DNA from: an uncultured delta proteobacterium
GTDB lineage: Bacteria > Myxococcota_A > Polyangia > Polyangiales > Polyangiaceae
Assembly: GCA_963716725.1 (NCBI GenBank)
Contig: CAVQUB010000008.1
Span: forward strand, 224,001 to 288,000
Length of the DNA: 64,000 nucleotides
Reading direction: 5' to 3'
Part shown: positions 1 to 7,376 of the stretch, piece after piece
Layout of the letters: each line of letters opens with the position of its first letter
Numbering within the stretch: the stretch's first letter is position 1
Translations under genes and position numbers: made by a program
The notes under the pieces: generated by a model
Seen by the model: only the letters and a program-made list of their open reading frames with translations
Database searches by the model: none
Told to the model about the DNA's origin: nothing

Positions 1-1499
1 AGAGCGACATCGATCGTGCGATGGTGTCGACGGATTTGGCGCTCGTGCTGCCGAGTCGAGGCGGCAGCGCGAGCGAGAGCATCGACGGCGGATTCACCTG
101 GCGCGAGGTCGAGTTGCCCGCCGACGGCGCGGCCACCGTGGCGCGAGCGCGGACCGAACAGAGCGCGGAGCGCGGGTGTTCCCGCGTGGGCTGCGTCTCG
201 GGCGCCTGGATGCGTGTGGGCTGGCGGGGCCGTACCGAGAGCAGCGACATCGAGGTGGTCGACGCGCCGAAGCACTCGCGCCTGCCGGCGACCCGCGGCG
301 GGCGATGGAACCTCTCCTGCGCGGCCACCGGAGCGACGGCGGGTGCCCGAACGAAGGAGCCGAAGCCGCAAGAGCCCGACGAAGAGGTCGGCATGATCGG
401 CACGCCCGGCAGGTTTGGACACCGTTGGGGTGCCGCCCCGCCGACGGCTTCGGTCGAACTCAAGAGCAGCGACTGGCAGCCCTTCAAGGGCGTCGCGGCG
501 CCCGCCAAGAAACCCACGGAGCTTGGCTTCGACATGGGCACCGAGCACATGGGCGCTCAGGTACGGGCCTACGCCTGGGGAGCGCGCGGAGCCAGCTGGG
601 ATCGCGTGGGCCATTTCGTCTTGCGCGCGCACGATCCCTTCACGCTGGAGCGAGGCGTGTGGTCCACGGCCACCGTTCGCGGGCCCTGGAGCGACGACAC
701 GGCGGCCTCCCAGGTCTTCGGCCGCGACTACAACCAACCGAGTGCGTGGTTTCCCGTCATGGAGCCCTCGGGGCGCGCGGCTGCGATGCTGATCAACGCT
801 CGGGGTACGACGGATCTGCTGCTGCTCGAGGAGGGCCGCGGCGTCGTCACGGTGCAAGATTCAGCGCGCTGGGGCCTGTATCAGCTGTCCGGCGCGGTAA
901 AGGTCGGCAGTACCTGGTACCTCGGCTCGTACGTCGCGGGCAGCAACTTCCGCCTGTTCAAGGTCAACGCTGGTCGGGTCGAGCTGCTCCGCGACTACCC
1001 AATGACCGGCGGCTGGCGGCCCAACACCACGCTGGCCGTGAACTTGGTCCGCAACTCGCGCAGCGACGCCCTGGGCATTTGGGTCGAAGCAAAGCGCACG
1101 CGCGGCACCGGCACCGCTTGGTACGTCTACTCGCTCGATCCGGAGACCGGCGATCCGCTCGACATGCTCTCGATCGATCCGCAGGAGCTCTCGCGGCTGC
1201 CGGCGGCTTGCGTTCAAGGTGCCGACGGTTGGGTGTTGGTCGGTGAGCCACCCGTCGATCCCTACGTCGACTTCCTTCAGCATGCAGACGGCATCCGATC
1301 ACAAGCGGTGCGAGCGAAGATGATCGCGCGACCGCAAGGGCTCTGCGTAGAAGTACTGAGCGCTGAGGCCCAAGCCGATGTACCGGCGCGCATGCCTCGC
1401 GCCGACGGCGCCCTCGCGAGCGGTTCGGAGCCGATCCCGATGGTGCTCGAAGAGCGCGGTCGACTCGGTCGGCGTTGGGGTTTTCGCTGCGTGCGTTAG
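1..1499 (+). CDS. Hypothetical (probably secreted) protein, 5'-truncated by window edge; contains an Asp-box/BNR-like motif
   Basis: Frame is open from the window start to TAG at 1497-1499; motif SESIDGGFTW resembles an Asp-box. Confidence 0.6.
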   Translation, partial: SDIDRAMVSTDLALVLPSRGGSASESIDGGFTWREVELPADGAATVARARTEQSAERGCSRVGCVSGAWMRVGWRGRTESSDIEVVDAPKHSRLPATRGGRWNLSCAATGATAGARTKEPKPQEPDEEVGMIGTPGRFGHRWGAAPPTASVELKSSDWQPFKGVAAPAKKPTELGFDMGTEHMGAQVRAYAWGARGASWDRVGHFVLRAHDPFTLERGVWSTATVRGPWSDDTAASQVFGRDYNQPSAWFPVMEPSGRAAAMLINARGTTDLLLLEEGRGVVTVQDSARWGLYQLSGAVKVGSTWYLGSYVAGSNFRLFKVNAGRVELLRDYPMTGGWRPNTTLAVNLVRNSRSDALGIWVEAKRTRGTGTAWYVYSLDPETGDPLDMLSIDPQELSRLPAACVQGADGWVLVGEPPVDPYVDFLQHADGIRSQAVRAKMIARPQGLCVEVLSAEAQADVPARMPRADGALASGSEPIPMVLEERGRLGRRWGFRCVR

Positions 1500-1766: not shown

Positions 1767-4638
1767 TTGGCTCGTTCGTTCGTTCGCTTCTTGGTTCCGG
1801 CTGTCGCGCTCTCGGGGGCCGTGCTCGCGGCTAGCTGCACGGATGGTGAGGAAGGCACGACCGGCACGACGAAGCCGACCGTTCCGAAGCCGGCACCGGG
1901 TGAGATTCTGCGAGTGGCCTCCCACTCCGGAGTACGTCGCGCTTCAGGTGCAGCCTTCGTTCACTGTGCTCGCGCCGGGGCAGACGCGCGAGTTAGACCT
2001 GATCGTCGAGCCCGACGTGTGTGTGCCGACCAAGCTCACCTTCGAGAGCAGCGACCCCAGTGTGGTCGCGGCTCCTTCCCCGCAGCTGCTTTATTTCTCC
2101 AAGGCCAAAGCCCGGGTCCAGGTCATTGGCGGGGGCGTTGGGCAGGCCACGCTCACGGCGCACTTCCCGCGCGGAGACGGCACTGATGTCACCCTCGAGA
2201 TCCCCGTCGAGGTGATGACCACGGACATTCCCACGTGCAGCGGGAGTGGCGCCGGCAAGCTCGACGACGGCAAGACAGTGAAGGGCAGCGGCGGCCTCGC
2301 GGGAGCGAGCATCGGGCTCCAGGTCGGTGCGACTCAGCCCAACTCGGGCAGCACCCTCTGGTCGGACATCAAACCTTTCGACGTCACCATCGCTTGCGCC
2401 AAGGACCAACTCCCAGCCGGTTACACCGCGCTCGGCCCCGCCGTCAGTTTCGGCCCCGTCGGCACGCGGCTGCAGCGCGAGATCCCCTTCAGCGTCCCGA
2501 TGAACCCCGCGGTGATGCCCGACGCGGCGACGCTGCGGCACGTCACCGTCAGCTACACCGGTCCGCGCGCCAAGAAGCCTCGAGCCATCCCCATCGCGAA
2601 TCCGCGCATCGTGCGCACCGGCGCCGGCTACAGCCTCGAGTTCCTCGCGCCTTGGCTCGGCACCTATCAGGCGGTCGTGCAGACCGCGGGCGGCACCAAG
2701 AAGCGCACACGCCGGCTCACGCACCGCGCGCTGGTCGGGATCTCCATGGGCGGCGGCGGCACCGCGATGTTCGGCATGCGCAACCATGACCGCTTCGACG
2801 TGCTCGCGCCCCTCGGGGGTCCCGTCGACTGGACCTGGATGCTGGGTCACATCTATCGAAACCACCTCGGGGGCTGGTTGCCGAACGACGGGACGACGCC
2901 GCCGACGGAGCTCGCGCCGATGCCGACGGCGACGCTGCCCTACGAGCACCCGAGCACCTTCAACCAGTGGTGGTACGAGTACCCGAAGAACGGCAACGGC
3001 GGCAGCTTCCCCCGCGCCGAGTACGTGCAGATCTTCCGGGACCTCGCCCTGATGTTCGGAAATCCGAACAGCTACAATCCGGCCAAGGGCGCGGAGAACC
3101 TGCCCGCCGGCATCCCGCCGGACGACAAGTCGGTCGTGGGCGATCACCCCGGACGACAGTGCGCGGTCACGGTCGATCCGCTCGACGGCCCCGACAAAGA
3201 GAAGCAGGAAGAGCTCGACAAGAACTGCCCCATCGAACGATGCAGTCACGTCAAGACGCTGTCCGGCTACTACGACGACGAGTTCAACCCGAAGGGCACC
3301 TTTCCCGTCATCACGGTCTGCGACGGCTCCGCGCAAGACTCGGCACTCTCGCCCTACGCCAACACCTGGAAGCCCGAGAACAACAACAAGCCCCTCGAGC
3401 TGGCCCTGGCCGTCGACTACAACGGCAACGGTGTTCGCGACCTGAACGAGCCGCTCTTGCGCCAAGGCCACGAGGTCTACGACGACGTCGGCGAAGACGG
3501 CCTGCCGAGCACCAAAGAGCCCGGCTACGAAGCCGGCGTGAACGAAGATCCCGCCGGGGACGACTGGGAGCCGCAGTACAATCCGGCCGGCCTCGAGGGA
3601 AACTACCGCTGGGACACCGGCGAGCCCTTCAAGGACGACGGTCTGGACGGGGTGCCCAACACCAAGAGCAGCCCCTACGACTTTGGCGAGGGCAACGGCA
3701 AGTTCGACTACGCGCCCGGTTATCGCACCTTTCTCGAGCGCGACTCGCGCACCGTCATCGAGCAGCACGCCCTCGGCACCCACGCCAAGCCTCTCGACGA
3801 CGCTGCCCTCGCGCGCCTCGACTTGTGGACCGACGGCGGCACCCGCGACTTGTTCAACTTCGCGGTGGATGCTGCGGCGTTGACCGGCGCGTGGTCAGCT
3901 CGCGACCGCATCTCGCACTACTACATCGAGTCGCATCGCATCCCAGGACAGAACCCGAACGACCCCAAGGTCTTCTTCGGCAACCGCTTCGACTGGAGCT
4001 CCATCCCAGGCGGCGTGTTCTTGCGCTACGGCAAGATCGATCCTGCGCAGAAGGACATCGAAAACGGTTCGGGTCAGCACGTCGGGACCGTCGACGAGAT
4101 CGCGCGCCGCTTGCAGTCGGCGCTCTACTACATCGGTAGCCGCTGGCCCGACGCGCCGCGCAGTCACGACGAGGAGAGCCTGGTGGATCCCGCCGATGGA
4201 GCAGAGACCTGCGAGGTGGTCGGCGCATGTGACTGGGAGTTCACCGACTCCCGGGGCCGAAAGGGGCCGGTCAGCGTGAACCTGCCGCCGGGCTACGCGC
4301 ACAAAGATCTTCAGAACAAGCGCTACCCGGTCATCTTCTTGCTGCACGGCTACGGTCAGACGCCCGAAGACCTGAAGGCGGCGATCATCTTCCTCAAGAA
4401 CTGGATGAACTTCCCCACCGACTCCCACGCCACGCGCCTGCCCAAGGCCATCATGGTCTACGTGGATGGTCGCTGCCGGCCCGGTAAAGACGAGGCGGAG
4501 TGCATCCGCGGCACCTTCTACACCGACAGCGTGCGCGAGCACGGCCCCAAGACCGAGAGCTGGTTCCTCGAGCTGATGGACGCGGTCGACAAGAAGTACC
4601 GCACGCAGGGCCCGAGCGAGATCGATTGGGTGGAGTGA
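1767..4638 (+). CDS. Lipoprotein alpha/beta-hydrolase (esterase-like, circularly permuted); apparent +1 frameshift near 1905
   Basis: GGAGG at 1757-1761 and TTG at 1767 give MARSFVRFLVPAVALSGAVLAASC (lipobox) in one frame; the body with GISMGG and YPVIFLLHGYG is in the 1843..4638 frame. Confidence 0.75.
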
Positions 4639-4892
4639 TGTTGGTCCAGTGCCCAGACTGCCAGCGCCACGTGCGAGTCTCCGAGACGGAGTGCCCGTTC
4701 TGTGCGAATCCCAGCGGCGGCACCGGTCGACGACGTGCGCTCAAGGTGGTGCTCGCCGGCGCTGCCGGCGTCGCCGCCATGACCATCGGCATCGGCTGCG
4801 CCTACGGAATGCCGCCCGAGGATCCGGCCGATGCGGACGTGGACGCTGACGCCGGGATCGAGGACGCGCCCGACGACGCTCCAGGTCAATGA
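4638..4892 (+). CDS. Putative radical-SAM substrate peptide (84 aa): Zn ribbon, hydrophobic segment, C-AYG-MPP, acidic tail
   Basis: TGATG overlap with the upstream stop; CPDC..CPFC, RRR plus hydrophobic stretch, GIGCAYGMPP; ATGA overlap with the rSAM gene. Confidence 0.8.
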   Translation: MLVQCPDCQRHVRVSETECPFCANPSGGTGRRRALKVVLAGAAGVAAMTIGIGCAYGMPPEDPADADVDADAGIEDAPDDAPGQ

Positions 4893-6046
4893 GACGCGCC
4901 GCTGTCGGCGAAGCGCCGCGCCCCATCTACGTGGTGTGGGAGATCACCCTCGCCTGTGATCTCGCCTGCGGCCACTGCGGCTCGCGTGCGGGCAAGGCAA
5001 GGTCCGACGAGCTGTCCACCGCCGAGGCCCTCGACGTGGTGCGGCAGCTCGCCGAGCTCGGCACCGAGGAGATCACGCTGATCGGCGGCGAGGCTTATTT
5101 GCGGAAGGACTGGGCGACACTGGCCCGCGCCATCGTGGACGCCGGCATGCGCTGCGGCATGACCACCGCGGGTCGGGGCTTTGGCGCGCATCACGCGGCC
5201 GCCGCCCGAGACGCCGGCGTCTCGGCCATCAGCATCTCCCTCGACGGCCTGCGCGCGGCCCACGATCGGCAGCGCGTCTTCGGCAGCTTCGAGCGGGCCC
5301 TCGGCGCCATGCGCTTCATCCGCGCGGCGGGCCTCGGGCTCAACGCCAACACTCAGCTCAATCGGCTCAGCGTGCCAGATCTCGACGGCGTACTCGAGCT
5401 GCTGATCACCGAAGGCGCCCGCGGCTGGCAGCTGCAGATGACCGTGCCCATGGGGCGCGCGGTCGACAATCACGAATGGCTGCTCCAGCCCTGGGAGCTC
5501 CGCGAACTCTATCCGCGCCTCGCAGTTCTCGCCGAGCGCGGGCGAGCGGCCGGCGTCGCCTTCTGGCCCGCCAACAACATCGGATATTTCGGCCCCCACG
5601 AGAGCACGCTGCGCAACCGCGGTGCGCCCGGGGCGATGGTTTGGCACGGCTGCAACGCTGGCGTTTACGCCCTGGGCGTCGAGGCCGACGGCAGCATCAA
5701 GGGCTGCCCCTCGCTGCCGACGGATCACTACGTCGGAGGCAACGTGCGTGAGCGCTCGCTGCGCCAGATCTGGGACGACGCCTGCGAACTCCGCTTCATG
5801 CGCGACGAATCGCCGCGCGACCTCTGGGGTTTCTGCGCCAGCTGCTACTACGCAGAAGAGTGTCGCGGCGGCTGCACCTGGACCGCGCACACCTTCTTCG
5901 GCCGCGGGGGCAACAACCCCTATTGTCACCACCGCGCCCTCGAGCACGCGGCGCGCGGCTTGCGTGAGCGGCTCACGCCCGTGGCCGCCGCACCGGGGCT
6001 GCCCTTCGATCACGGTCGCTTCGAGATCGTGGTCGAGCCGGCTTGA
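4889..6046 (+). CDS. Radical SAM/SPASM peptide maturase, PlpX (splicease)-like
   Basis: WEITLACDLACGHCGSRAG (CxxxCxxC), IGGE, SPASM cysteines GCNAG, IKGCPSL, CASC..ECRGGC, NNPYCHHR. Confidence 0.9.
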   Translation: MRRAAVGEAPRPIYVVWEITLACDLACGHCGSRAGKARSDELSTAEALDVVRQLAELGTEEITLIGGEAYLRKDWATLARAIVDAGMRCGMTTAGRGFGAHHAAAARDAGVSAISISLDGLRAAHDRQRVFGSFERALGAMRFIRAAGLGLNANTQLNRLSVPDLDGVLELLITEGARGWQLQMTVPMGRAVDNHEWLLQPWELRELYPRLAVLAERGRAAGVAFWPANNIGYFGPHESTLRNRGAPGAMVWHGCNAGVYALGVEADGSIKGCPSLPTDHYVGGNVRERSLRQIWDDACELRFMRDESPRDLWGFCASCYYAEECRGGCTWTAHTFFGRGGNNPYCHHRALEHAARGLRERLTPVAAAPGLPFDHGRFEIVVEPA

Positions 6047-6844
6047 TCAGAGCGCAGCGACGAGGGCCCGGATCACGGCCTCGGCGAAGACCGCGCGCGT
6101 CTCGGGCTCGTCCCACCGCCGGGCTTCGCGATCGTCCAGGGCGTTGTGAGTCTCGATGATCACCGAAGGGATCTTGGGTCTCCAGAGCACGAAGACGCGC
6201 TCCGTGGCCGCGCGACGATCCACGAACACGCCGCGCTGCACGTCGTCAGCCGCGTAGGTCGGCGCGTACTCGGCGCCGGCGTAGGCCAGGAACCCGGACT
6301 GCTCCAGCGATCGACCGAGGGCCCGCGCGATCCCGACCCGCGCACCTATCGCGCTCGGCTCACCGTGATCCGACCAGAGTACCGACAGCCCCGGCGCCGA
6401 CCGGCTCCGCGAGCAGCTGGTCCCCGGTTCGGGTTGCCAGAGCTCGGTCTTACCGCGCACGTCGGAGTGCAGGCTCAGGAATACGTCCGCGGGCCAGGCC
6501 TCGGCCTCACGGATGCGCTCTCCGTAGGGAACGAGCTGATCGTTCCGGCGCGTGAGCTTGACGTCGAAGTGGCCAGTTCGGCTGAGCGCGGTCGCCAGAT
6601 CTTCGGCCAGAGCCAGCGTGAAGCTCTGTTCATCGCGGCAGAAGGCGTTCTTGTTTCCGGTGTTGCCTGGCGCGCCGTGTCCCGGGTCGACAACGACGCG
6701 GCGGGTGCCGAAGTTCACCGGGATCGTCGCGGTCGCCGGGTGCAGCTTGGCGTCGGGCCAGACCTCGGGCTCGAGCGCGCGGCCCAACGCCCAGCTCGAC
6801 AGCGCGAGCCCCGCGACCAACCCGAGAACCGCCGCCTTCCGCAC
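6047..6844 (-). CDS. N-acetylmuramoyl-L-alanine amidase (Amidase_3)
   Basis: Signal peptide; VVVDPGHG..E, FLSLHSD, PSVIIE zinc-amidase motifs. Confidence 0.85.
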   Translation of the reverse strand: MRKAAVLGLVAGLALSSWALGRALEPEVWPDAKLHPATATIPVNFGTRRVVVDPGHGAPGNTGNKNAFCRDEQSFTLALAEDLATALSRTGHFDVKLTRRNDQLVPYGERIREAEAWPADVFLSLHSDVRGKTELWQPEPGTSCSRSRSAPGLSVLWSDHGEPSAIGARVGIARALGRSLEQSGFLAYAGAEYAPTYAADDVQRGVFVDRRAATERVFVLWRPKIPSVIIETHNALDDREARRWDEPETRAVFAEAVIRALVAAL

Positions 6845-6914: not shown

Positions 6915-7376
6915 TCACGGGCTCACGAACACCGCCATACCGACGCCGAAGATCAGGATGCCTGCCTCGAGGATCCAAAACAGCAGCCAGATCCCACCAA
7001 AGATGCCGCCCATGATCATGCCCACCAGCGCCAGGGTGGCGTTGTTGCCGGTGTCGTTCTCTTCCTTGGCCTTCTGACGTGCGCGGTTGCCGAAATAGAG
7101 CGCAGCAAAGCCCATCGGGAAACAGGTCGTCGACATGGTGGCGATGGCGAGCACGAGGGCGATGACGGCGTCGGAGTTCGTGGGCTTGGACGGGGTGCCG
7201 AAGGGTGCGCCGTAGGTCCCCGGAGGCGGTGGAACGAAACCCATCGGTCCTCCGGGCGGCGGGCCGCCGGGCGGAACACCGGGCGGAACACCTGGGGAAC
7301 CCCACGACGGACCGCCGGGCGGAACCCCCGGGGGACCTCCCGGGGGGCCCCAGGGCGGGCCAGGCGGCGGTTGCAT
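6915..7376 (-). CDS. Pro/Gly-rich membrane protein (DUF4190-like)
   Basis: PPGG repeats followed by two hydrophobic helices (N..AVIALVL; ALVGMIMGGI). Confidence 0.65.
   Translation of the reverse strand: MQPPPGPPWGPPGGPPGVPPGGPSWGSPGVPPGVPPGGPPPGGPMGFVPPPPGTYGAPFGTPSKPTNSDAVIALVLAIATMSTTCFPMGFAALYFGNRARQKAKEENDTGNNATLALVGMIMGGIFGGIWLLFWILEAGILIFGVGMAVFVSP

Follow-up and report, generated by a model that had tools for sequence, protein, structure and literature searches.

The locus examined here lies in a 64,000-nucleotide stretch of DNA from an uncultured delta proteobacterium of the Polyangiaceae (the window) and raises the question of whether a single alpha/beta-hydrolase domain can be encoded there with its two halves exchanged, the block that opens a canonical esterase being found at the extreme C-terminus of the protein. 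The answer developed below is that the product of the gene is very probably a serine esterase, extracytoplasmic and likely lipid-anchored, which belongs with Fes, XynZ and esterase D to the PF00756/CE1 lineage and whose alpha/beta-hydrolase domain is naturally circularly permuted.

Extent of the Gene and Its N-Terminal Domains

The initial annotation had flagged the span 2700 to 4638. Its assignment of that span to an esterase held, but the extent of the gene had to be revised, as the gene starts well upstream with a signal peptide and two Ig-like domains preceding the hydrolase (Table 1). A GGAGG sequence is found at 1757-1761, 5 bases upstream of the TTG start codon. In the window copy, the coding sequence runs in frame 0 from this TTG and in frame 1 from about position 1906 to the stop codon, and the ORF as assembled covers 1843 to 4638 (frame 1, + strand). 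Omitting the letter at 1906 yields a single ORF of 956 amino acids, 948 of which are identical to those of the cluster representative P0002. Contigs from runs X1, X5 and X9, which belong to three studies, are each without one letter at this position, and that of X1 is otherwise identical to the window across 626 bases; run X11 does not cover position 1906 and forms no part of this comparison. The surplus base, probably an assembly error, thus gives rise to an apparent frameshift by which the signal peptide is split from the remainder of the ORF.

Table 1. Features of the probable permuted esterase gene and of the protein it encodes, in window coordinates.
Feature	Position	Strand	Basis or detail
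Whole gene	1767..4638	+	start TTG 1767, stop codon 4636-4638
Signal peptide, lipobox-like ...LAAS-C (Cys24 codon 1836-1838)	1767..1838	+	sequence and P0002
Single surplus base relative to assemblies from the same or a near-same organism	1906..1906	+	contigs of runs X1, X5, X9
Two beta-sandwich (Ig-like) domains, P0001 residues about 23-292	1909..2718	+	full-length model, Foldseek, family profile
Strand 5, nucleophile elbow G-I-S301-M-G-G, helix C, strand 6, first lid helix	2719..2868	+	PDB alignments, model
Lid insertion of about 310 aa, residues 343-652	2869..3798	+	composition, motifs, conservation
Strand 7, Asp669 (3847-3849), helix E, strand 8, His746 (4078-4080), final long helix	3799..4140	+	conservation, 1jt2 superposition
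Acidic linker, residues 767-794 (28 residues)	4141..4224	+	between blocks matching canonical halves
Strands 1-4 and helices A and B, residues 795-931 (N-terminal block in canonical enzymes)	4225..4635	+	Pfam, 7xrt, 1jt2

The N-terminus of the restored protein reads M-A-R-S-F-V-R-F-L-V-P-A-V-A-L-S-G-A-V-L-A-A-S-C, and at least 90% of 42 homologues likewise have a Cys following a hydrophobic stretch. Judged from this signal-peptide sequence, the protein is probably a surface lipoprotein held by a lipid anchor. The next region is all-beta in the full-length AlphaFold model, with pLDDT values above 90, and among PDB sequences the family profile matches the SbsC chains 4uid and 4uj7. Foldseek matches obtained with the full-length model were limited to Fab fragments and S-layer SbsC domains, i.e., to the Ig-like N-terminus, and since this search was silent on the esterase, residues 280-931 were modelled separately. 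In stand-alone members of the family (P0184, P0189, P0195 and P0212), the signal peptide is followed nearly at once by G-x-S-M-G-G.

An antisense ORF of 596 amino acids (1993..3783) overlaps the gene; it has no Pfam match and was taken as a high-GC artefact rather than as a real gene.

Order of the Hydrolase Blocks

All the motifs on which the initial annotation had based its proposal are found in frame 1 and in the order it described. RALVGISMGG, which holds Ser301 (codon 2743-2745), precedes both DGGTRD (residues 664-669, positions 3832-3849) and GQH, the latter holding His746. The normally N-terminal block VNLPPGY..YPVIFLLHGYG..GTFYTD..ELMDAVDKKYRT occupies residues 810-921 (4270-4605) at the extreme C-terminus, and the segment to which it belongs comprises LPPGY, YPVIFLLH835-G836 (H835-G836 at 4345-4350) and a YRT end.

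Comparison with Pfam shows the halves of the Esterase profile (PF00756) exchanged. In the window protein, residues 805-921 align to profile positions 5-112 of 251 with 28.6 bits (cut-off 22), and the stand-alone members reach 63.6-69.8 bits. The two swapped segments that had been anticipated were recovered among the latter, the C-terminal block falling on the start of the profile (P0189 residues 493-606 on positions 1-115) and the Ser region on later positions (P0184 residues 56-95 on positions 115-153).

The same pattern emerges from the alignment of family profiles to solved CE1 esterases, which in all five alignments printed consists of two pieces in reversed order. For 7xrt, family positions 753-881 align to chain residues 31-144 (1.7e-13) and positions 283-317 to residues 144-178; 8z91, 5vol and 1jjf display the same two-piece reversed arrangement. 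As both halves are clearly similar in sequence to canonical CE1 enzymes, the breakpoint can be placed exactly to the residue, at the junction of helix B and strand 5. In the alignments to 7xrt and 1jjf, the G-[IV]-S-M-G-G motif of the family falls on the nucleophile position, and its Ser coincides with the Ala of the nucleophile mutants 7xrv (S150A) and 1jt2. A BLASTP comparison with a canonical Chitinophaga esterase likewise placed residues 810-926 on 57-162 (7e-9) and residues 266-384 on 141-277 (0.42).

When the core profile of the family was re-ordered in silico to the canonical order, 40 of 41 canonical esterase ORFs gave one alignment spanning the junction, while the profile in its native order aligned to such ORFs as two swapped pieces. 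Relative to the canonical order of PF00756, in which the strand 1-4 block stands before the nucleophile, the present family is swapped both in each of the five PDB alignments and in the comparison with the 41 canonical ORFs; the protein is a permuted derivative of PF00756 and not a canonical member of it.

Conservation and Spread of the Family

At least 1208 homologues were retrieved (E <= 0.001), and the family comprises 376 clusters at 50% identity. Of 301 Myxococcota genomes sampled, 79, or roughly one in four, contain it, and Polyangium aurulentum encodes a homologue, P0104; the match in locus L080, an Allomuricauda MAG, is short and weak. The swapped order is kept in 42 full-length genome loci and in all 120 homologues listed out of the 1208, and because of the latter it cannot be put down to chance. 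NCBIfam contains no family-specific model, its feruloyl esterase, type-1 dPHAscl and esterase D models being matched below threshold, and no description of the family was found in a search of the literature outside subscription journals.

Neighbouring genes were considered as possible partners. The downstream zinc-ribbon/TM ORF (4638..4892) and the radical SAM/SPASM gene (4889..6046) were both rejected because, of 80 loci examined, they recur in the closest one, L001, alone. An Amidase_3 gene (6047..6844, - strand) was also discarded, as it adjoins the esterase gene in none of the 80 loci.

Ser301, Asp669, His746 and Gly836 are each kept in all 56 aligned sequences, down to about 30% identity, and His835 in 54 of them. 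The invariant acid is the second Asp of DGGTRD, i.e., Asp669, the first (Asp664) being kept in 55 of 56. Asp669 and His746 follow predicted strands, precede the last helix and lie inside the half that superposes on residues 162..284 of 1jt2; both were assigned by conservation, motif position and this half-domain structural overlap, and neither assignment draws on a sequence alignment to a canonical enzyme. The putative Ser-Asp-His triad, whose absence would have spoken against the initial annotation, is thus invariant throughout the alignment.

A catalytically dead scaffold or binding module, whose fold has been retained so that the protein can adhere or bind a ligand on the cell surface, would be in keeping with so large a lid and with the Ig-like domains, and the homologues are annotated solely as 'hypothetical' or 'Ig-like domain-containing protein'. 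The invariance or near-invariance of the three triad residues, of G-x-S-M-G-G and of the H-G pair in 56 sequences is nevertheless the pattern of a working triad, and a pseudoenzyme is considered very improbable. In the esterase favoured here, catalysis would follow the ordinary Ser-His-Asp acyl-enzyme mechanism, with an oxyanion hole to which Met302 and a residue that follows strand 3 would presumably contribute their backbone amides.

Evidence for a Single Predicted Fold

The AlphaFold2 model of residues 280-931 is a single compact unit with a pLDDT of 94.6 and a pTM of 0.94, the corresponding values for the full-length protein being 88.2 and 0.91. The first part of the permuted domain, for which secondary structure was taken from the AlphaFold models, begins directly after the Ig-like domains. 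In a Foldseek search with the 280-931 model, the first rank was taken by the permuted hydrolase 2d80, albeit with a weak best E-value of 1.4e-3. VIA-align superposed model residues 13..641 on residues 30..338 of 2d80_A in colinear fashion (Z 12.4, rmsd 3.5 Å over 239 residues) and gave Z 12.0 and 4.1 Å over 244 residues for 2d81.

Canonical hydrolases, in contrast, match the model only by halves: their C-terminal halves fall on model residues 7-495, or their N-terminal halves on residues 497-645. Both halves are matched, separately, by 1jt2: model residues 12..493 superpose on chain residues 162..284 (Z 6.5, rmsd 2.5 Å over 122 residues), and residues 498..643 on 45..160 (Z 7.8, rmsd 2.8 Å over 110 residues).

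The association of the halves was also predicted with the chain split in two. This ESMFold2 prediction scored 0.91, compared with 0.35 for the best of three controls, although the run used a custom alignment and the pass may only echo the model's memory of solved alpha/beta hydrolases; of 157 solved complexes 116 attain the mark applied, as do 2 of 215 mismatched pairs. Contact agreement between runs was at least 95% and partner pLDDT at least 88. The lowest-error contacts join model residues 15-20 with 550-555 and 23-28 with 555, so that strands 5 (15-20) and 3 (550-555) are predicted to be immediate neighbours. The outcome that would have told against a permutation, a pair of independent domains sharing no sheet, is thus not what is predicted.

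The swapped blocks could also be read as remnants of separate partial domains, for instance of a decayed tandem duplication, or as an assembly chimera. Permutations classically arise by duplication and subsequent loss, so that intermediates could exist, and one indel of the assembly type is indeed present in the window, at 1906. Against this stand the conservation of the order in the 120 listed homologues, which come from many assemblies, and in the 42 full-length loci, the residue-exact breakpoint, the single unit seen in the model and the predicted packing of strand 5 on strand 3; moreover, either block alone would be without half of the fold. Such an origin is considered extremely improbable. 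Taken together, the swapped pieces of the profiles, the colinearity of the re-ordered profile and a single predicted fold colinear with 2D80 bear out the natural circular permutation that had been proposed.

In the permuted domain as predicted, the chain leaves the two Ig-like spacer domains and enters the fold at strand 5, passing from Ser301 to strand 6 and through the lid of about 310 residues; Asp669 then follows strand 7, and His746 precedes the last helix. The linker of 28 residues (D+E 28.6%), which bridges the positions equivalent to the C- and N-termini of canonical esterases, then carries it across to strands 1-4. H835-G836 lies at the end of strand 3, and strand 3 pairs in the prediction with strand 5, completing the sheet beside the nucleophile elbow.

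The Lid Insertion

The insertion occupies the usual position of a cap, after strand 6. It was correctly described beforehand as acidic and motif-bearing, but the length of about 330 residues given then does not correspond to what was found, as Ser301 and DGGTRD are separated by 363 residues and the lid itself measures about 310. It contains 17.1% D+E, has a net charge of -28 and is rich in Gly, Pro and Asn. Its motifs include DYNGNG, DVGEDG and DDGLDG, the pattern D.[DNG].[DNG]G being matched three times. Cys467 and Cys493 are invariant, as are nine acidic positions (56 of 56 sequences), and pLDDT values in the model of 280-931 are mostly above 90. A Pfam search of the lid (E <= 1) returned nothing except a spurious NpwBP match, and in particular no calcium-binding repeat of the thrombospondin type-3 or EF-hand-like kind; the Atlas look-up gave no usable match, and no PDB sequence was matched there by the family profile. 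The conserved acidic loops, possibly by way of calcium, and disulfides may stabilise the lid, which could serve as a gate or a binding site for a bulky ester, for example a polymer, a polysaccharide ester or a polyester.

Comparison with Known Systems

Permutation of this kind has already been published for type-2 PHB depolymerases, and the kind of rearrangement is therefore not new. Type-2 dPHAscl (PHB) depolymerases are described as carrying the oxyanion-hole block on the C-terminal side of both lipase box and triad (PMC2666664), and the Penicillium funiculosum enzyme of this type as a natural circular permutation of the alpha/beta-hydrolase fold with strands 1-4 last (PMC3531081, PMC2666664, PMC13552848). 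What is new here is an uncharacterised, CE1-derived, mostly myxococcotal family with a huge lid.

By the same accounts, the chain of the P. funiculosum depolymerase (2D80/2D81) starts, like that of the family, near the nucleophile strand and ends with the oxyanion-hole block and strands 1-4. The window protein shows this very order (S301, D669, H746, then H835-G836), and its model is colinear with 239 of the 318 residues of 2D80. The family could, accordingly, be a divergent branch of the type-2 depolymerases, its permutation stemming from the same event as that of P. funiculosum PhaZ and its substrate being a polyester of the PHB type; this is a sub-case of the permuted esterase that differs from the main reading in origin and substrate. 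It is favoured by 2D80/2D81 being not only the best but the sole colinear structural match, by the shared order of lipase box, Asp, His and oxyanion block, and by weak matches of the C-terminal block to the NCBIfam models type-1 dPHAscl (31 of 56 members) and esterase_phb (3 of 56). However, 2D80 shows no detectable sequence similarity to the family, being absent from the 54 PDB sequences that match the family profile at E <= 10, while CE1 feruloyl esterases reach 8.3e-21, and identity in the structural alignment amounts to 12%. Pfam shows no PHB substrate-binding domain in the family, and 2D80, a single domain of 318 residues in total, has neither a counterpart of the 310-residue lid nor Ig-like domains nor a lipoprotein signal. 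Common descent with the type-2 depolymerases is thus considered unlikely.

The closest relatives of the permuted CE1 esterase by sequence are canonical CE1 enzymes, namely the Bacteroides feruloyl esterases BT_4077 (7XRT) and Bacint_04212 (5VOL), XynZ of C. thermocellum (1JJF) and the metagenomic 8Z91, with E-values of 8.3e-21 to 1.6e-15 against the family profile. They share with it the motifs LPPGY, YPVxYLLHG, YRT and RAIAG-x-SMGG, and half-domain structural matches to the model have rmsd values of 1.9-2.8 Å. Unlike the family, they carry the two halves in the opposite order and comprise 250-350 residues, with caps that are small or absent in place of a lid of about 310 residues. A further difference is the loop between strand 4 and helix B, which in the family is bracketed by Cys878 and Cys887 (each kept in 53 of 56). 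Neither the feruloyl and acetyl-xylan esterases, which are nearest by sequence, nor the PHB depolymerase, which is nearest in structure, fixes the substrate.

We tentatively advance a more specific possibility, that a second, independent permutation of strands 1-4 took place inside CE1/PF00756 and became coupled to a disulfide-braced, probably calcium-loaded lid of about 310 residues and no recognised fold, giving Myxococcota-wide surface esterases for a substrate on which known CE1 enzymes do not act. If this were true, the junction of helix B and strand 5 would be a site at which natural permutation of the alpha/beta-hydrolase fold recurs.

Domain-based annotation detects only half a domain in these proteins, and a class of secreted esterases from predatory and polymer-degrading bacteria is consequently overlooked in enzyme mining, also where esterases active on polyesters or plant cell walls are sought.

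That the fold tolerates new termini is known from engineered permuted hydrolases (cpHaloTag, 8B6O and 6U2M), which span both parts of the model with Z-scores of 5.7 and 5.2. The cpHaloTag constructs differ from the present family in being artificial, in belonging to the haloalkane dehalogenase family and in having another breakpoint. Within the literature consulted, the family described here stands beside the type-2 PHB depolymerases as a second, large and well-conserved natural permutation of the fold, and it offers a clean natural case for studying the tolerance of new termini, the recurrence of breakpoints and the grafting of a huge lid onto a small esterase.

Reading Frame and Domain Layout

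The stretch in which the initial annotation had read a permuted alpha/beta-hydrolase sits within a single long plus-strand ORF (1843..4638; P0001, 931 aa), and the gene extends beyond that stretch. The motifs that it had named were all located where it had placed them: RALVGISMGG (codon 2743-2745 for Ser301), DGGTRD (residues 664-669), GQH (codon 4078-4080 for His746) and the normally N-terminal block VNLPPGY..YPVIFLLHGYG..GTFYTD..ELMDAVDKKYRT at the extreme C-terminus (residues 810-921), with the stop codon 4636-4638 right after it.

The representative of the 90%-identity cluster, P0002 (956 aa), has an N-terminal signal peptide ending in a lipobox-like Cys. The matching N-terminus of the window is encoded in a different frame, from TTG 1767 (frame 0, the remainder being in frame 1) with GGAGG five bases 5' of it, and a single extra base at 1906 separates the signal-peptide frame from that of the esterase gene. 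This base is missing in contigs from three public runs, each of a different study, and one of the three is otherwise identical across 626 bases; a fourth run had no coverage there. Once the base is omitted, the ORF from 1767 comprises 956 aa, 948 of them identical to P0002. The frameshift is therefore probably an assembly indel rather than the sign of a dead gene. The source genome is 84% complete in 35 contigs, with the esterase gene in one copy; further genes of this assembly may hold similar errors. Two beta-sandwich domains follow the signal peptide, and Foldseek matches of this region were Fab fragments and S-layer SbsC domains.

Coordinates of genes, residues and alignments for the probably permuted esterase
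Feature	Position	Strand	Observation
Upstream ORF, at least 492 aa	3/21..1499, runs past window start	+	No Pfam match
Two beta-sandwich domains	Between signal peptide and esterase	+	Full-length model all-beta, pLDDT >90
84-aa ORF	4638..4892	+	ATG overlaps esterase stop; zinc-ribbon-like start C-x2-C...C-x2-C (CPDC...CPFC), hydrophobic stretch
Radical SAM/SPASM gene	4889..6046		Start overlaps 84-aa ORF end by four bases
N-acetylmuramoyl-L-alanine amidase gene	6047..6844	-	Amidase_3, E 7.3e-21
153-aa ORF	6915-7376	-	Pro/Gly-rich repetitive N-terminus (PPGGP-type repeats), then hydrophobic segments
Very long ORF, 1355 aa	11046-15113	-	
Conserved residues	S301, G299, G303, D669, H746, G836		Kept 56/56
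Conserved residue	M302		Kept 55/56
Conserved residue	D664		Kept 55/56
Conserved residue	H835		Kept 54/56
A2 profile, 7xrt	Family 753-881 = chain 31-144; family 283-317 = chain 144-178		
A2 profile, 8z91	Family 763-881 = chain 25-131; family 284-312 = chain 132-160		
A2 profile, 5vol	Family 749-880 = chain 11-129; family 284-315 = chain 131-162		
A2 profile, 1jjf	Family 749-833 = chain 30-109; family 283-316 = chain 144-177		
Foldseek, P. funiculosum PHB depolymerase			Rank 1, E 1.4e-3
VIA-align, 2d81			Z 12.0, rmsd 4.1 A, 244 residues aligned
VIA-align, 2d80_A	Model 13..641 = chain 30..338		Z 12.4, rmsd 3.5 A, 239 residues
C-terminal-half match, 1jt2	162..284		Z 6.5
C-terminal-half match, 8z91	160..364		Z 7.2-7.3
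C-terminal-half match, Fes 3mga	274..403		
N-terminal-half match, 1jt2	45..160		Z 7.8
N-terminal-half match, 5vol	20..142		
N-terminal-half match, 7xrt	22..138		rmsd 1.9 A

Swapped Order of the Esterase Domain

Searched against PDB sequences, a family profile built from the 56-member alignment A2 matched solved CE1 esterases strongly (from 8.3e-21 for 7xrt to 1.6e-15 for 1jjf), and all five alignments printed fell into two pieces in reversed order, as they did with the smaller alignment A1. From the piece boundaries in the CE1 chains, it follows that the residues at which the protein ends and its hydrolase domain begins are neighbours in the canonical enzyme; the aligned sequences place the breakpoint, to the exact residue, at the helix B/strand 5 junction. 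The family Ser lies over the Ala position of the nucleophile mutants 7xrv (S150A) and 1jt2.

Other comparisons gave the same picture. Pfam Esterase (PF00756) matched residues 805-921 at profile positions 5-112 of 251 (28.6 bits, cut-off 22), and the two swapped Pfam segments predicted by the initial annotation appeared as two stretches in four of the seven family proteins scanned, with matches such as residues 493-606 of the homologue P0189 to profile 1-115 and residues 56-95 of P0184 to profile 115-153. In BLASTP, a canonical esterase encoded by a Chitinophaga genome aligned over 57-162 with residues 810-926 (7e-9) and, only weakly, over 141-277 with residues 266-384 (0.42). Two HMMs were made from the A2 core blocks with the lid excluded, one keeping the native order and the other rearranged to the canonical one, and searched against the ORFs of 37 canonical-esterase loci. 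Both matched 41 ORFs; for 40 of these the re-ordered HMM gave one alignment that ran across the junction and reached at least 15 positions to either side of it, and the native-order HMM yielded two swapped pieces.

An AlphaFold2 model of residues 280-931 computed with A2 reached a mean pLDDT of 94.6 and a pTM of 0.94 (88.2 and 0.91 for the full-length model). After a short first strand, the modelled chain runs through strand 5, Ser301, helix C, strand 6 and one more helix into a stretch of about 310 residues, mostly irregular yet predicted with confidence. Then come strand 7 with Asp669, helix E, more strands, His746, a long helix and a linker, and the chain closes with two strands, strand 3 (ending in H835-G836), helix A and strand 4, followed by helix B and a short strand at the C-terminus. 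All three structure searches with this model ranked Penicillium funiculosum PHB depolymerase first. Structure comparison, as proposed with the original claim, also supported it, in that canonical hydrolases aligned by halves only: VIA-align matched model residues 7-495 to their C-terminal halves and 497-645 to their N-terminal halves. Since 1jt2 matches both parts, a single chain maps onto the model in two pieces with the order swapped.

A split-chain prediction asked whether the last 143 residues of the domain fit into the fold formed by its first 509. The resulting score, which expresses likeness to a fold and is not a measurement, was 0.91 against 0.35 for the best of three controls; solved complexes attained this mark in 116 of 157 cases and mismatched pairs in 2 of 215. 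Contact agreement between runs was at least 95%, with a partner pLDDT of at least 88. The contacts predicted with least error joined domain residues 15-20 (strand 5) to 550-555 (strand 3), which in the model is the canonical strand 3/strand 5 pairing, and residues 23-28, just past the Ser, to 555; the outermost strands at both termini of the domain also belong to the interface. Much of this result may stem from solved alpha/beta hydrolases already known to the predictor. Taken together, the two-piece profiles, the re-ordered HMM and the half-wise structure matches support the natural circular permutation claimed, and the esterase domain is very probably a circular permutation.

Predicted Catalytic Residues and the Acidic Lid

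Conservation was counted in the 56-sequence alignment, in which identity falls to about 30%. The segment W-T-D-G-G-T-R-D-L-F is presumably similar to the Asp region that follows strand 7 in this esterase family, and its invariant second Asp, D669, is the candidate triad acid. Catalysis would proceed by an ordinary Ser-His-Asp mechanism, with an oxyanion hole built by two backbone amides, that of Met302 and that of a residue following strand 3.

The insertion spans residues 343-652, after the helix following strand 6 and before strand 7, which is the cap or lid position of most alpha/beta hydrolases according to PMC11878206. It is strongly acidic (D+E 17.1% versus K+R 8.1%, net charge -28), contains 10.6% Gly, 11.0% Pro and 7.1% Asn, and includes DYNGNG, DVGEDG and DDGLDG. 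Nine acidic positions (D525, E536, E544, D548, E594, D598, D602, D613 and E616) and the cysteines C467 and C493 are kept in 56/56 members; each of C878 and C887, which lie in the strand-4/helix-B loop, is kept in 53/56. The split-chain model brings parts of the lid (domain residues 117-127 and 158-180) into contact with this Cys-bracketed loop. Conservation of the acidic loops and cysteines is consistent with a domain outside the cytoplasm, putatively stabilised by metal and disulfides. No relatives of the lid were found in Pfam, PDB sequences or the Atlas.

Family Distribution and Gene Neighbourhood

Of 8000 candidates scored in a search with residues 280-931, 1208 proteins matched at E <= 0.001. 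Those listed, 120 in number, cover 88-100% of the query, are labelled 'hypothetical protein' or 'Ig-like domain-containing protein' and, where a source is named, come from Polyangiaceae, Myxococcales, Byssovorax or Polyangium. Exhaustive HMMER searching over representatives at 50% identity yielded 376 clusters at E <= 0.001, of which 143 at E <= 1e-30, and a phylum sample gave matches at E <= 1e-20 in 79 of 301 genomes (68 of 272 high-quality ones). The whole 652-residue region is encoded in 42 of the 80 loci kept from the genome collection, which belong to myxobacterial groups where named below phylum level, several being only 'delta proteobacterium' or 'Proteobacteria bacterium'; in another 37, from many phyla, the match is confined to the last ~120-160 residues. 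The distant members P0184, P0189, P0195 and P0212 (~610-680 aa) lack Ig-like domains and pass from a signal peptide with Cys almost at once to G-x-S-M-G-G, leaving no room upstream for strands 1-4. The swapped arrangement is thus neither chance nor special to the source assembly.

The radical SAM gene resembles nif11-class and GDL-motif peptide maturases (NCBIfam) below the cut-offs (500 versus 725 and 440 versus 592 bits). It and the 84-aa ORF adjoin the esterase gene only in the closest locus (L001) among the 80 examined; the three genes may form a small peptide-maturation cassette. The 492-aa ORF, which may be a functional partner, adjoins the esterase gene in seven of 80 loci (upstream in five, downstream on the opposite strand in two), and an Amidase_3 gene in none of the 80. 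The gene surroundings fix no substrate. Positions 1500-2500 of the window were recovered (at least half of sampled words) in 14 runs from biofilter, wastewater, sediment and groundwater metagenomes, which suggests that this organism or close relatives of it are common in water systems, both engineered and natural.

Relation to Known Permuted Hydrolases

A large, mostly Myxococcota family of putative surface esterases that combines a CE1-derived permuted domain with a 310-residue acidic lid is new; a literature search, with subscription journals and supplements outside it, found no description of this family. PMC2666664 defines 'type 2' PHA depolymerase catalytic domains, in which the oxyanion hole lies C-terminal to the triad, and lists the P. 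funiculosum enzyme among them. Order and breakpoint are alike in the present family, so this kind of rearrangement was already known. By sequence, however, the family derives from canonical CE1/PF00756 esterases; 2D80, the P. funiculosum structure, is absent from the 54 PDB sequences matched by the family profile at E <= 10. The permutation may be common to both groups or have arisen a second time. The precedent of the permuted PHB depolymerases makes the finding less surprising; of note are the large size of the family, a breakpoint placed to the exact residue, a lid of no recognised kind and the possibility of a second origin.
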